Positions 2,770-11,498 of a DNA stretch of 12,484 nucleotides are shown here, piece by piece; positions within the stretch are counted from its first letter, which is position 1, and the number at the start of each line of letters is the position of its first letter. The position numbers were made by a program, and so were the translations under genes. The notes under the pieces were generated by a model. It did not search any database. It was not told the DNA's origin and saw only the letters and a list, made by a program, of their open reading frames with translations. Source of the DNA: an uncultured Deinococcales bacterium (lineage in GTDB: Bacteria; Deinococcota; Deinococci; Deinococcales; JAAFIG01); assembly GCA_964244895.1 (NCBI GenBank), contig CAXTKV010000142.1, positions 1,672 through 14,155 on the forward strand, in the 5' to 3' direction.

Positions 2770-4344
2770 TCACTTGACGGTCTGCAAATTCGCCACGCAC
2801 ATCTCGTCCTGGGTGCTTTCACCCCAGACGACGTAACGCGGCTTGCCCTGCGCGCCATTCACCCACGGCTGATGCTGCGCGCTGTTATCAAACGTGCAGG
2901 TCAACCGCACCCGGTCGCCCGCGCGCAACGGCACGGGTTGCTGGAACCAGTACCCGCTCTGCCAGTGGAAATCCCAGCGCGGAATGTCTAGCAGGACCTG
3001 ATGTTTCGGCGTGTCCGGATTCAGCTCTATTTTCAGATTCGTGCCCAGCACGTGCATGTGCCCCTGCGTGCCCAGCGCCAGTTGATCCTTGCTGATGGGA
3101 AATTCGCAACTCGTGGTGATCTCGTCTTCCTTGCCGGGCGTGACGCCGTTCAATGGCGCTTGCTCGCGGCAGTATTTGAGCAATGCTCCACCTTCCAGAA
3201 TCTTCGTCAGCCAATCCTCCTGGTACGGGCGCACCGCGTCGTAACCGGCGTTGCGGTTGCAGCGGTCGCTCGAGTCCATCGGGTACGCGCCCGCGCACGG
3301 GATTTCAACCGGCGCGACCAGACCGAGCAAGCTGATCGGCCTGAGCGGTTCGTCTGAGAAGTACATCTGGGCCGCCGTCCGATCCGCGCCGCCCTCGCCG
3401 CCAATCAGGTTGTAATGCACCTGCACCACCAGTTGCGCGCCCGGTTTGAGCACCACGCCCGTACCCGTCGGGTACTTCACCGCCGCCACGCCCGGAACCC
3501 AACTGCCGACGTAGCCCAGCGTGTCCGGGCCGTTGGACAGGAAATCCGCGTCCGTCACCTGCGCTGCCGCCGCCGTGGCGAGCGCATCGTTGCCGATGCC
3601 GGGCCCGCCGAAGCACGACCAACCGCCGCGCCCATCCTGTTTCTTCTCGAGCGTTCGGGCTTCATCCAGGAACCGTCCGGTCGCCTGGAAGATCAGCACG
3701 TGATGCACCAAGCGCGCGTTGCCCGGCAGGATGTTGTAGCCCGACAGGTAGCGTGTGGACGTCAATTGCGGGTCGATCAGAAAGCAGCGGTACTCGTCCG
3801 TCAGGCTGGTGTCCGGTTTGAAATCTCGCCCGATGTCCACGGTCAGATCCGGCTGGCGTTTCTCGAGGGCGAGTTTGAGGCTCGGTTTCGCATCGCTCGC
3901 CTGACCCATCGGAGCGCCCGCCCACGACCAGTTGGCGATCACGGCGATCTCGTCGTCACTAAGCCTCATCTCGCCCTTGAACTTCGGGCCTTCGCCGCCC
4001 GGCAACCACGGCGGCATGCGCTTCGACGCGACCGCGATTTTGGCCGCCCGCGCGTGCTCCGCGACCGAAGCCGCATCGTCCAGCGCAAACGGCGCGATGC
4101 CGCCCGCCGTGTGGCACGAGGTGCAGTGCTGATCCAGGATCGGTTTGACATCCTTGAAATACGTCGGGATATACGGCAAGAGCTTCGGCTGGCTGGACGC
4201 CCACTCCGTCTGGGACGCCTGCATCAGACCGGACGGCCTGGCGCGCGTCTCACCGACGGACAGCAAGCGCGATCCCGCCAGCGCCCCGCCCAGCACGCCC
4301 AGACCCGCGACCAGCACCGCCCACCGCCACCTCGAGATCGACAT
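2770..4344 (-). CDS. Secreted protein with c-type heme motif and copper type II (PHM/DBH-like) monooxygenase domains (524 aa)
   Basis: Basic then hydrophobic N-terminus; CTSCH (4111-4125); VHHVL and HYN (CuH-like); HMH and DEMC (CuM-like); WDFHWQ. Confidence 0.82.
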   Translation of the reverse strand: MSISRWRWAVLVAGLGVLGGALAGSRLLSVGETRARPSGLMQASQTEWASSQPKLLPYIPTYFKDVKPILDQHCTSCHTAGGIAPFALDDAASVAEHARAAKIAVASKRMPPWLPGGEGPKFKGEMRLSDDEIAVIANWSWAGAPMGQASDAKPSLKLALEKRQPDLTVDIGRDFKPDTSLTDEYRCFLIDPQLTSTRYLSGYNILPGNARLVHHVLIFQATGRFLDEARTLEKKQDGRGGWSCFGGPGIGNDALATAAAAQVTDADFLSNGPDTLGYVGSWVPGVAAVKYPTGTGVVLKPGAQLVVQVHYNLIGGEGGADRTAAQMYFSDEPLRPISLLGLVAPVEIPCAGAYPMDSSDRCNRNAGYDAVRPYQEDWLTKILEGGALLKYCREQAPLNGVTPGKEDEITTSCEFPISKDQLALGTQGHMHVLGTNLKIELNPDTPKHQVLLDIPRWDFHWQSGYWFQQPVPLRAGDRVRLTCTFDNSAQHQPWVNGAQGKPRYVVWGESTQDEMCVANLQTVK

Positions 4345-4845: not shown

Positions 4846-4862
4846 CGGCGGAGGGTGACGGG

Positions 4863-4924
4863 AAGACCGTCCCAGACGAGGTTCCTCGAGGTATGATTAT
4901 CGCGTGCTGGACGGTGTTCTCGAG
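4863..4924. repeat. Palindrome-family copies between divergent genes
   Basis: AAGACCGTCCCAGACG (4863) and GTGCTGGACGGTGTTCTCGAG (4904-4924). Confidence 0.7.
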
Positions 4925-4998: not shown

Positions 4999-5328
4999 AT
5001 GCCAAACGAACTGATCATCGAAGACACCGTCATCGGCACGGGCGCGACCGCATCTGCAGGGCAAACGGTCAGCGTGCATTACACCGGCATGTTCCCGGAT
5101 GGACGCAAATTCGATTCCAGCCTGGATCGCCGCCAAGCCTTCGAGTTTCCCCTCGGGGACGGAGCCGTCATCAAAGGCTGGGATGAAGGCGTGCAGGGCA
5201 TGCGCGTCGGCAGCAAGCGCAAACTGACGATCCCACCGCATCTGGGGTACGGCGCTCGGGGCGCGGGCAACGTGATCCCGCCCAATGCCACGCTTGTCTT
5301 CGAGGTCGAGTTGCTGGACGTAAAGTAA
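4999..5328 (+). CDS. FKBP-type peptidyl-prolyl cis-trans isomerase (109 aa)
   Basis: [42 protein letters not shown]. Confidence 0.96.
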
Positions 5329-5359
5329 AGGTTGCTCGAGAGATGAATATTAACGGTGA

Positions 5360-5407
5360 GAATACAGTCCAGCACGCAAATTATGAAATGTGTGCTGGAC
5401 GGTGTTC
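5360..5407. repeat. Long-form hairpin repeat, left boundary of low-GC cassette
   Basis: GAATACAGTCCAGCACGCA, 10 nt, TGTGTGCTGGACGGTGTTC; 16 of 19 arm positions are complementary. Confidence 0.85.
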
Positions 5408-5510
5408 ATCATAAAGAGTCATTAACGAAATACTTTCAGTAGGGATGGATGATTCGGCTTATTCAAGATATTGTGTCTTTAAAACAGTTTCACGCAAGAT
5501 GTGCTATATG

Positions 5511-5539
5511 AATAATGTTACCAGTCCAGTAACATTATT
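5511..5539. promoter_or_regulatory. Perfect AT-rich inverted repeat, putative protein-binding site
   Basis: AATAATGTTAC-CAGTCCA-GTAACATTATT (11-7-11). Confidence 0.55.
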
Positions 5540-5611
5540 TTGACGTGCTGGACGTGACAAATCATGGATCGAATCGCGTGTACACTGACCAACGTAGGAG
5601 GTGAACGATCA

Positions 5612-5839
5612 ATGGGAAAACTCGTCAGTTTTTTTCTGGGTGCTGTGCCAAACGCTCTTGAGGGTGCGGCGCGCATCTTGGACTTTGGAAATACCTTGAC
5701 CGTCTACAACACCTCGAGCGACCCGACAGAGGCCGATGTTCGCGCCATGCGCGCAGACTGGTCACTCCTGGGCAGTGACATGCGATCCGCGATTCGTTCC
5801 GTGAAGAACGAGATCGAGGGATCGTCTAGTGTCCAATAA
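5612..5839 (+). CDS. Small hypothetical protein (75 aa) upstream of the DUF2335 gene
   Basis: Strong SD AGGAGGT (5596-5602) and TACACT -10 (5581-5586). The stop overlaps the next gene by 11 nt. Confidence 0.75.
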   Translation: MGKLVSFFLGAVPNALEGAARILDFGNTLTVYNTSSDPTEADVRAMRADWSLLGSDMRSAIRSVKNEIEGSSSVQ

Positions 5840-6272
5840 GAGAGCCAAAGCGCAACGCCGTGATGGGATCGCGCGTGACAAGTCAGGTAATACCATTGCC
5901 ATGCAAGAAACCCGCATGGAATGGAGGTCAGGACCGTTACCTGATGCAGAGGAACTAGAGCGCCTCGAGCGGCTTGTCCCCGGTTCAGCAGAACGCATCA
6001 TCCAGAAATTCGAGCAGCAGGTTGATCATCGCCACAGTTTAGAGAATTTTGTGATTCATTCCGGCGCGCAACGCTCGAGGCAAGGTCTCGCCGCCGGGTT
6101 TATCGTAGCCTTATCAGGGTTTGGCGTGGCGATCTATGGACTTTCAACAGGTCACGAAATCGCCGCAGCTATAATTGGCGGTCTCGATTTGGTTGGCCTG
6201 GTGACGGTGTTCGTTACTGGTAGCGCTCAACAACGACAAGAGCGGGGGCAGAAGGATAAACTTGCTCGTTAG
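5829..6272 (+). CDS. DUF2335-family membrane protein (147 aa)
   Basis: SGPLPDAEELERLERLVPGSAERII...EQQVDHRH signature followed by two TM helices; GTG start. Confidence 0.85.
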   Translation: MSNKRAKAQRRDGIARDKSGNTIAMQETRMEWRSGPLPDAEELERLERLVPGSAERIIQKFEQQVDHRHSLENFVIHSGAQRSRQGLAAGFIVALSGFGVAIYGLSTGHEIAAAIIGGLDLVGLVTVFVTGSAQQRQERGQKDKLAR

Positions 6273-6315
6273 CGACCTGAGAAAGATCATCGTTTTCAAG
6301 CCTACATATACCTGA

Positions 6316-6377
6316 TGCGCAAGAACACCGTCCAGCACGCATCCTAAGACTTGTGTGCTGGACGGTGTTCTTGCGCA
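6316..6377. repeat. Long-form hairpin repeat, right boundary of low-GC cassette
   Basis: Perfect 23-bp inverted arms: TGCGCAAGAACACCGTCCAGCAC (6316-6338) and its complement (6355-6377). Confidence 0.92.
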
Positions 6378-6453
6378 CTGCACTTTCTCGAGAACGCTTG
6401 AAGTGCTACCCTTGAACCCGCATCGAGCGTCAACCTCGAGCCAGAGGGGTTCA

Positions 6454-7806
6454 ATGAAAGCGCACATCATCACGTACGGTTGCCAGATGAACGAGTACGA
6501 CACGCACATGGTCGAATCGCAACTCGTGGCGTTGGGGACGGAACTCGTGTCCAGCGTGGACGACGCGGATTTCGTGCTGATCAACACCTGCGCGGTGCGC
6601 GGTAAACCCGTGGACAAGGTCAAGGCCGTGCTGGGCGATTTGCGCAAACTCAAGCGCTCGCGTGGACTGATGGTCGGCGTGATGGGTTGCCTGGCGCAAC
6701 TCGAGGAAGGCCAGCAGATCGCTCGAAAGTACGAGGTCGACGTGCTGCTCGGGCCGGGCGCGCTGACGGACATCGGCGCGGCGCTGGAATCGAACACTCG
6801 CTTCTGGAGCCTGGCCTTCAAGGACGAGATTCACGACGTGATCCCGCCGCCACCCGTCGGCAAGCTATCGGCGCACCTGACGATTCAGCGCGGTTGCGAT
6901 CACCACTGCACGTACTGCATCGTGCCGACCACGCGCGGGCCGCAGGTCAGCCGCAAACCGGGCGACATCATGCAGGAACTGGACGCGATGATTGGGGCGG
7001 GCGTCCTGGAGGTCACGCTGTTGGGGCAGAACGTGAACTCTTACGGCAAGGATCAGCCCGGATCGCCGCGCTTCGGGGAACTCTTGCGGATGGTCGGTAA
7101 AAGCGGCATTCCGCGCGTCAAGTTCACGACCTCGCACCCGATGGATTTCACGGACGACATCATCGAAGCCATCGCGGACGCGCCGAACATCTGCAAGTAC
7201 ATTCATCTGCCCGTCCAGTCCGGTTCGGATCGCGTTCTGAAACGCATGGGCCGCGAGTACACGCGCGACTGGTATCTCGAGCGGATCGAGAAGATCAGGG
7301 CGCTCGTGCCGGACATGTTCCTGTCCACCGACATCATCGTGGGCTTTCCCGGCGAGACCGAGGAAGATTTTCAGGAGACGATCAGTTTGTACGACGCCGT
7401 CGGTTACGATGCCGCGTACATGTTCATCTACTCGGCGCGCCAGGGAACGCCGTCTTACGCGCACTTCGATGACCTGCCGCGCGAACTCAAGACGGAGCGG
7501 TTGCAGCGATTGATCGAGGTTCAAAAGGACTGGAGTTTGCGCCGCAACACCGCGCTGGTCGGGCGAGAACTCCAGGCCCTGATCCGAGGCCCCGCCTACG
7601 AGCCGAGCTTCGTGGAAGGTCACACGGAGGGCAACCACCCGATCCTCCTGCCCGCTTCCGAAGCGCCCGGCCCCGGCCTGTACCGCGCCCGGATCGAACA
7701 CGCCACGCCGCACATGCTCTTCGGTAAGGTCACGGAAACCATTCAGACCTCGAGCATCGCGCCCGCGCTGCACGCCTCGCCCGTGATCTCGAGCGCGACG
7801 CTGTAA
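6454..7806 (+). CDS. miaB: tRNA i6A37 methylthiotransferase MiaB (450 aa)
   Basis: TYGCQMN, NTCAVR, GCLAQ; radical [33 protein letters not shown]-like C-terminus; SD-like AGAGGGG. Confidence 0.94.
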
Positions 7807-7835
7807 TTTTTATGGGGACTCAAAAGCTTGCCTTT

Positions 7836-7876
7836 CTCCCCTCTCCCGCTTCTGAGAGAGGGGTCGGGGGTGAGGG
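7836..7876 (+). repeat. CCCCTCTCCC...GAGAGGGG-TCGGGGGTGAGGG type REP-like element
   Basis: CCCCTCTC/GAGAGGGG stem followed by a GGGGGTGAGGG tail, downstream of miaB. It resembles a widespread intergenic repeat type (from recall). Confidence 0.65.
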
Positions 7877-7890
7877 CGCTCCAAACGGTT

Positions 7891-7951
7891 ACACCGTTCC
7901 ACACGCAAAAATGAATGTCCGAGAAACACTGTTCAGGACGGTGTTTCTCGG
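7891..7951. repeat. Palindrome-family copies upstream of the membrane protein gene
   Basis: ACACCGTTCCACACG (7891) and hairpin CCGAGAAACACTGTTCAGGACGGTGTTTCTCGG (7919-7951). Confidence 0.8.
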
Positions 7952-9279: not shown

Positions 9280-9313
9280 GGGAGACGCCCCCTCGAGCCG
9301 GATGAATCCGCAA

Positions 9314-9360
9314 AACACCTTCCAGCGCGCGTTCTCGAGAAACGCGTCCTGGACGGTGTT
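9314..9360. repeat. Long-form hairpin between convergent genes (possible terminator)
   Basis: AACACCTTCCAG-cg-CGCGTT-ctcgaga-AACGCG-tc-CTGGACGGTGTT. Confidence 0.8.
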
Positions 9361-9366
9361 CCCTGT

Positions 9367-11432: not shown

Positions 11433-11448
11433 CGGTTTTCTCCCCCAC

Positions 11449-11496
11449 GAACACCGTCCTGCGCGCACCCTTTTGGTTTGCGCCCTGCACGGTGCC
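11449..11496. repeat. Degenerate long-form palindrome-family hairpin
   Basis: GAACACCGTCCTGCGCGCA...TGCGCCCTGCACGGTGC. Confidence 0.65.
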
Positions 11497-11498
11497 CT

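Follow-up and report, generated by a model that had tools for sequence, protein, structure and literature searches.

In the 12,484-nt stretch of DNA from an uncultured Deinococcales bacterium analyzed here (the window), a mobile gene pair sits between two copies of a repeat found at more than two thousand loci of the same genome. The repeat family is REP-like but has an unusual geometry, and the gene pair is an ordinary mobile module. The reading that we judge probable is that the repeats are residents of this genome, likely serving as docking sites on duplex DNA, and that the pair, which encodes a DUF2335 protein and a 75-aa ORF, landed by host recombination behind the repeat that follows an FKBP gene, the two flanking copies being independent of each other. 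The initial annotation had singled out this locus as a cassette bracketed by recombination or insertion sites that would capture small genes with no recombinase encoded in cis.

Both hairpins exist as described there. The 41-nt pattern of arm, ten variable bases, and arm occurs in direct orientation at 5367-5407 and 6330-6370, it was seen in 0 of 200 shuffles, and both copies have a predicted DNA hairpin fold (z = −5.7 and −11.9) without extrahelical bases in the stems. The full unit is longer (48-50 nt). The left unit (5359-5408, no strand assigned, like all repeat features given below) belongs to the 25-bp spacing class and consists of two 23-bp sites with two arm differences from the consensus. 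The right unit (6322-6371) is near-consensus, and its stem runs 6 bp further outward (6316-6377 with this extension), a length reached by 6 of 995 units (2.2 expected). The 31 non-spacer bases said to be shared do match, but the full-length unit adds two further arm differences, which lie outside the left boundary originally drawn. In total, the two units differ at 8 of 48 positions, and 6 of the 10 spacer bases are different. The G/T mismatch common to both stems is present but commonplace, since 11% G-T and 10.5% A-C mismatches were counted in 648 units on the plus strand.

The likeness of the two copies is nevertheless unusual, as had been claimed. The exact 31-base variant has two occurrences genome-wide, both at this locus, and the window pair alone among 99 neighbor pairs is identical over 31 bases (0.27 expected). 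The exact 19-nt right arm recurs in 7 of 639 units on the plus strand and in 5 units on the minus strand. The flanks of the two copies are unrelated (best match 7 nt), and no repeat of the FKBP 3′ end was found at the right copy. The latter sits 49 nt past the DUF2335 stop codon, a usual position for this repeat family, and has a GTT close to its right end.

The description of the DNA between the hairpins as an A+T-rich insert of about 900 bp with two genes was also confirmed. The insert measures 913 bp, has a GC content of 0.506 (genome 0.627), and ranks third lowest in GC among 202 doublet-to-doublet intervals. It comprises (i) an A+T-rich leader of 203 bp (5409-5611, plus strand, GC 0.39) with a ribosome-binding-like AGGAGG at 5596-5601; (ii) a 75-aa ORF of an unnamed family (5612-5839, plus strand), which precedes DUF2335 genes in several phyla and in phages; and (iii) a DUF2335 membrane protein gene (5829-6272, plus strand; PF10097; PHROG 3996, moron category) overlapping the 75-aa ORF by 11 nt. 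Upstream lies the host gene for an FKBP-type prolyl isomerase (4999-5328, plus strand), which has native codon usage; downstream, a host gene with domain matches to Radical SAM and UPF0004 (6454-7806, plus strand) is the one we take to be miaB. A gene model trained on the same genome calls FKBP and miaB and neither cargo gene, and GC3 is 0.63 and 0.51 in the cargo genes compared with 0.76 and 0.84 in their neighbors. The promoter region noted earlier in the leader is at best putative, as two weak promoter-like matches compare with 1.2 ± 1.3 in shuffles. Near 5521-5555, the leader also contains a decayed repeat-like stretch scoring under the threshold of the position weight matrix. No Rfam match and no phage genes were found in the window. 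Further upstream, at 2770-4344 on the minus strand, the window encodes a protein of 524 aa in which a cytochrome c-like motif occurs together with domains of the copper type II monooxygenase kind; it has three paralogous matches elsewhere in the genome.

The repeat itself is abundant. Its 16-nt arm occurs 430 times exactly and 1237 times with at most one mismatch (0 and 1 in the reversed genome), and a weight matrix detected 3579 arms in 2201 loci (three arms in the reversed-genome control), a density of about one locus per 2.3 kb. The family is restricted to this lineage: the twin pattern has 853 matches in the genome of the window, 0-2 per genome in 363 others from the phylum (all 18 from the bacterial family among them), and none in viral contigs. 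Based on gene calls from a custom script on a genome that is 91% complete, 2001 of the 2201 loci fall between genes and 119 within genes, while 81 are at the edge of a contig. Among intergenic gaps of 60-400 bp, a copy is held by 386 of 489 convergent, 1040 of 1772 tandem, and 179 of 464 divergent gaps, and the median distance to a stop codon is 20 bp. Further members in the window are (i) upstream of FKBP, a repeat of the 35-bp class whose left site has decayed (4861-4920); (ii) a repeat of the 26-bp class between convergent native genes (9312-9362); (iii) a decayed twin unit between native genes (11448-11498); (iv) a decayed cluster of sites (2630-2723); and (v) a decayed single palindromic site downstream of miaB (7923-7947). 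Also behind miaB, at 7835-7877, lies a CCCTCTCCC-type hairpin repeat whose short motif matches 16 times in the genome. We take it to be of the kind found beside DUF559 genes; DUF559 has one weak match in the genome. Judged by title, no paper among the literature matches listed deals with the sequence of the twin repeat, and the family tables of PMC3733652 may hold a related consensus.

Underlying the family is a 23-bp palindromic site whose center spans 5 bp; 93 perfect copies of it stand alone. Doublets have conserved outer halves, whereas their inner halves are A+T-rich and degenerate; the ten variable bases of the initial annotation therefore mostly correspond to two inner tails. Center-to-center spacing falls into discrete classes of 25 (672 units), 26 (54), 35 (282), and 36 bp (81), as opposed to 8 units at 30 bp. 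Even the 942 apparent singles have weak partners at 25-26 (248) and 35-36 bp (250), over a background of about four per offset. Nearly every copy is unique, with 647 distinct sequences among 648 units of the 25-bp class. Signs of local copying are few: inner identity of at least 0.9 was reached in two direct and three inverted of 197 comparisons (0.22 expected per orientation). At two places in the genome of the window (G000, C30:19381-19640 and C319:1466-2056), neighboring units carry identical inverted inner segments, which points to local copying or conversion. Between the two arms of one unit, center positions covary (0.60 vs. 0.46), as would be expected of hairpin formation or of subfamilies no less than of protein docking. 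On the transcribed strand, 360 G-T wobbles compare with 388 A-C mismatches and no U-tract bias was detected; selection on an RNA hairpin is thus not evident. Two candidate identities were rejected: an intrinsic terminator, as neither a U-tract on the transcribed strand nor a G-U tolerant stem was evident, and a MITE or insertion sequence, as the units are distinct and target-site duplications of 2-8 bp in the flanks did not exceed shuffles. Flank complementarity was not found either.

In distribution and shape, the family agrees with the REP, BIME, and REPIN elements as portrayed in parts of two reports (PMC3733652; PMC6006769), and the term REPIN-like used previously is appropriate to that extent. 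Shared features are lineage restriction, hundreds to thousands of copies, an intergenic location near gene 3′ ends, enrichment between convergent genes, and a predominance of inverted doublets, and some of the families described there have no transposase. No tetranucleotide foot and no associated RAYT was found, and further differences are the degenerate inner half-sites, spacing classes one helical turn apart, the near absence of identical copies, and the phased wave in the flanks described below. We weighed a REP/REPIN family of the classical kind, which a lost or unassembled HUH enzyme of the RAYT type would have spread in the form of folded single strands and which would be kept as RNA or DNA hairpins, and regard it as possible, with a chance well short of even. 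Placement with respect to convergent, tandem, and divergent gaps and to stop codons is REP-like, the inverted doublets have covarying arms, the 91% completeness of the genome counts in its favor, and, in the portion of PMC3733652 that bears on this point, REP families of the CGTC type are likewise described without a transposase. What speaks against it is that no conserved GTAG/GTGG foot (the flank columns are weak and CTCG-like) and no terminal CGTC/TGTC tag, which in CGTC-tagged REPs stands outside a stem of 8-9 bp with a CCA tail, was found, CGTC being located inside the arm and not at an end. Spacing quantized by one helical turn, a wave locked to the site, the lack of a wobble strand bias, and a single repeated unit in 648 argue in the same direction. 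The RAYT profile PF01797 has no match in the genome, and NF047646 has one match below the cut-off, in a lone RAYT-like gene that carries a different repeat of the GTAG type. This 188-aa ORF (L029:1405-1971, contig C12 of the same genome) has a GTAG-type palindrome at its start, and another lies in inverted orientation within the reading frame. The motif of this palindrome has nine matches in the genome, and a palindrome resembling the GTAG family is located at 74-97 of the window, directly downstream of a nicotinate phosphoribosyltransferase gene.

Evidence for docking on double-stranded DNA comes from the flanks. Around 1147 doublets, A+T content follows a wave with a period of 11.5 bp and an amplitude of 0.029 at offsets 20-90, reached in 0 of 300 jitters; past offset 90 the wave is gone. 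It persists in coding flanks and in 1038 flanks without half-sites, 504 of them also without CTCGAG, and a decayed third site was therefore rejected as its cause. Its phase is equal in both spacing classes, and it is weak around lone palindromes. At 722 gene ends, the wave was locked to the site (0.024) and not to the stop codon (0.002). Its amplitude at codon positions 1, 2, and 3 was 0.029, 0.019, and 0.025, respectively, the value for position 2 being barely above the jitter maximum of 0.018. The individual flanks in the window do not show the wave (r = −0.06 to 0.10). The codon-position and stop-anchor tests of the wave are new here, as is the landing-site comparison of the gene pair presented below. 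A site-locked wave of 11.5 bp suggests docking of a protein on the duplex, and since it is also present in amino-acid-changing positions, the wave would mostly reflect where copies were placed.

We infer that a protein binds the paired sites and bends or wraps the flanks. Two dimers of this putative DNA-bending protein would occupy the paired sites in a fixed helical phase; our genome searches found no cognate protein for the sites. The copies may have been placed by an enzyme preferring bendable, periodic DNA near gene 3′ ends. A more far-reaching version, in which a novel enzyme reads DNA bendability in the form of the 11.5-bp wave, extending some 70 bp to either side, and the roughly 2200 sites are interchangeable landing pads of a recombinase-free cassette system, seems to us quite doubtful. 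The nearest analog in geometry is the gyrase motif of Escherichia coli, together with BIME-2: in the parts of PMC6379681 that treat them, BIME-2 repeats are preferred gyrase sites, and periodic G+C arms around a central site are read as DNA wrapped on protein. The gyrase motif is degenerate and has a period of 10.75 bp, whereas the repeat reported here has a period of 11.5 bp and a sequence-specific core. A REP-like family with turn-quantized spacing and a phased wave suggests that a sequence-specific protein bends or wraps the DNA at thousands of places, and the repeats offer a bait for finding it.

Some features of sequence composition were seen genome-wide. The hexamer CTCGAG occurs 21,883 times (4.3 per kb; in the window, for example, at 4917-4922 and 6387-6392). 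It peaks 13.5 bp from the repeat center (471 of 3304 flanks) and seldom flanks a unit on both sides (7 of 902, P = 3 × 10−4); a literature search for CTCGAG as a highly iterated palindrome found nothing. Several other 6-bp palindromes are strongly avoided, with 31 occurrences of CGGCCG and 60 of CCCGGG. An AA/TT autocorrelation of 11-11.5 bp is also present away from the repeats.

If the hairpins were dedicated capture sites, they should mark accessory genes. Units of the arm-spacer-arm type proved common, and no clear tie to genes of atypical GC or to accessory genes emerged, which is largely the outcome that the initial annotation had named as speaking against its proposal. Repeat copies flank 397 of 5669 ORFs on both sides. 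Among ORFs that span 100 aa or more and lie clear of contig ends, bracketing was rarer at low GC than in native genes: it was seen for 4 of 152 below a GC of 0.55, 23 of 499 at 0.55-0.60, and 351 of 3476 at 0.60 or above, with a low-GC set that includes possibly spurious rescued ORFs. Low-GC regions were bracketed in 11 of 217 cases compared with 7.2 expected (P = 0.09; 38 edge regions dropped), and a GC of at most 0.52 was seen in 5 of 202 doublet-to-doublet intervals compared with 1 of 286 repeat-free intervals. Both results lean towards the proposed link to accessory genes, and neither is strong. No paralog family stood out among the 302 ORFs of at most 450 aa flanked on both sides, and inspection by eye of the 70 most atypical ones yielded no mobilizer candidate.

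Searches for an enzyme elsewhere in the genome did not bear out the proposal either, as no matching RAYT, no integron integrase, and no IS110 transposase was found. The best match to the integron integrase model TIGR02249 scored 32.7 bits against a cut-off of 265, in an incomplete genome and with a cut-off that no control genome passed. Nine tyrosine recombinases matched above the Pfam cut-off, none of them bracketed by the repeat on both sides. The one GIY-YIG match is in a 610-aa ORF, which reads like UvrC and is presumably that enzyme. Dedicated sites of an attC or REPIN type, at which a recombinase acting in trans would capture and release cassettes, are, in our judgment, highly improbable. 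Their direct orientation, the stable hairpins, the low-GC mobile cargo, the GTT near the right end, and the nine tyrosine-recombinase matches had spoken for such sites. Set against these are the density of the loci (one per 2.3 kb) and their location mostly near native genes, the integrase score of 33 bits, the stems without extrahelical bases, the lack of IS110, and the lack of a recombinase ORF bracketed by the repeat. Ordinary tyrosine recombinases need matching spacers, and those of the two window copies do not match. Integron cassettes, as presented in part of 10.64898/2026.03.17.712381, share the hairpin-bounded blocks of small ORFs, but attC sites vary in sequence, whereas the arm here is fixed, the copies are dispersed and not arrayed, and no IntI was found. 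The label attC-like is hence not supported. With no integron integrase, IS110 transposase, or matching RAYT and with no target duplication, the idea of dedicated cassette sites largely fails; from the capture of a cassette without a recombinase in cis, what holds is that these two genes are mobile and specify no recombinase.

Mobility of the pair is evident from its relatives. DUF2335 occurs in 20 phage and 9 plasmid records, and in the literature it receives passing mentions. In a Leptospira phage (39% identity) and, with weak similarity, in an Alteromonas phage, a relative of the 75-aa ORF immediately precedes DUF2335, so that the phage morons of PHROG 3996 share both the membrane-protein family and the small upstream ORF, distantly so for Alteromonas; here, the pair is chromosomal. 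The same order was found at 12 of 14 loci in Chloroflexota, Planctomycetota, Acidobacteriota, and a Nomurabacteria genome, and one of the two loci without DUF2335 after the 75-aa ORF reaches the contig end. Used alone as a query, the 75-aa ORF had no viral relative and no Pfam, PHROG, or PADLOC match, and PADLOC gave no match for the pair. Twin hairpins around the pair were absent from the seven loci examined in other phyla. Within the bacterial family, DUF2335 was detected in 5 of the 18 other genomes and the pair in 3, and in a tree of 20 the DUF2335 of the window groups with these three (G003, G013, and G015; support 94/88). The pair is located behind leuA in G003, behind lon in G013 and G015, and behind FKBP in the genome of the window.

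At lon, cargo is often followed by a copy of the gene end. In G013, the lon terminator precedes the pair and a copy of that terminator follows it (30 nt exact, 40 nt at 92.5%), and copies of the lon 3′ end or terminator of 40-97 nt follow cargo in G013, G009, G015, and G007. No lon 3′ copy was seen in G003, and in G011 the contig ends at a possible copy. Behind lon in genus g4 (L156-L161, L175), variable arrays of small cargo were observed (toxin-antitoxin pairs, with ParE, PIN, and RelE/HTH, the DUF2335 pair, and uncharacterized genes), with lon copies in four of six genomes. The junction of leuA with a DUF2461 gene is similarly variable, with five states in six genomes of one genus (L125, L176-L180). 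Nothing is inserted there in G015, whereas G003 has the pair, with no duplication. G013 has a Uma2 gene at this junction and G011 one nearly identical to it; the insert in G007 is non-coding, and G009 has another gene followed by a 28-nt copy of the leuA 3′ end. Genome-wide, duplicated gene 3′ ends are mostly tandem paralogs (9 matches vs. 2 in controls at score 40, 3696 genes).

The lon and leuA cases are instances of the known insertion with long target duplication. As characterized in the accessible part of Furuta et al. 2010 (PMC2853133), this class comprises small gene blocks without a mobility gene between direct repeats of more than 30 bp, often at a gene 3′ end, as seen at lon and leuA including the pair in G013; the cases in that paper are restriction-modification genes whose repeats are nearly identical and often unique in the genome. 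The duplicated terminator of G013 shows that capture at hairpins with duplication occurs in this bacterial family, though the hairpin in that case is another one, unique in sequence, and the route is known. An eroded event of the same kind at FKBP would mean that the module, as a small circle or via repair, integrated at a single repeat behind FKBP by host recombination over 48 nt of homology, that both copies descend from or were converted by this event, and that their spacers diverged later or came from donor and recipient. The rare arm variant shared by the two copies speaks for this course, which we consider rather unlikely. Precedents are the G013 pair itself, the duplicated lon 3′ ends (43-97 nt) behind other cargo in G009, G015, and G007, the 28-nt leuA copy in G009, and the class of Furuta et al., which in the part of that paper at hand comes mostly from naturally competent species. 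However, the spacers share 4 of 10 bases, about the chance level, and the flanks are unrelated. The 6-bp stem extension of the right copy suits one intact element better than a hybrid, the pair in G003 and G015 has no hairpin copy directly behind it, and one identical pair in 99 against 0.27 expected is weak evidence for a pair picked for its likeness. Differing at 8 of 48 positions and belonging to a family of 2200 loci, the repeats in the window come closer to the third class in the pertinent section of that paper, chance insertion between repeated sequences.

Independent copies, as we prefer, would make the right one a family member in its own right, and the module would move among kin by uptake and short-homology recombination. 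A contig from a public sequencing run (depth 5.8), 92% identical to the FKBP end, has a loose end in which the repeat begins at an unchanged offset. The remaining 833 bases of this contig are not on the insert at 80% likeness and not among the miaB matches listed, indicating that the left copy is resident and that the sequence behind it varies. The run, the one run listed, gave no cover over the insert, to which we attach no weight beyond this contig. In 24 loci of relatives, some of them cut by contig ends, FKBP was absent within 1.5 kb upstream of miaB, and hence no empty site was seen. The best FKBP match in metagenomes had 77% identity, with none close. When the flanks were joined to rebuild an empty target, two boundaries fitted equally well. 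In this bacterial family, small genes accumulate behind the 3′ ends of housekeeping genes (lon, leuA, and FKBP), often with the end duplicated, and provide natural cases for studying the unexplained route of long target duplication. Behind lon in the genome of the window itself (contig C83, around 5200-5480), a terminator, a twin unit, and A+T-rich DNA follow one another in the same layout as behind FKBP.
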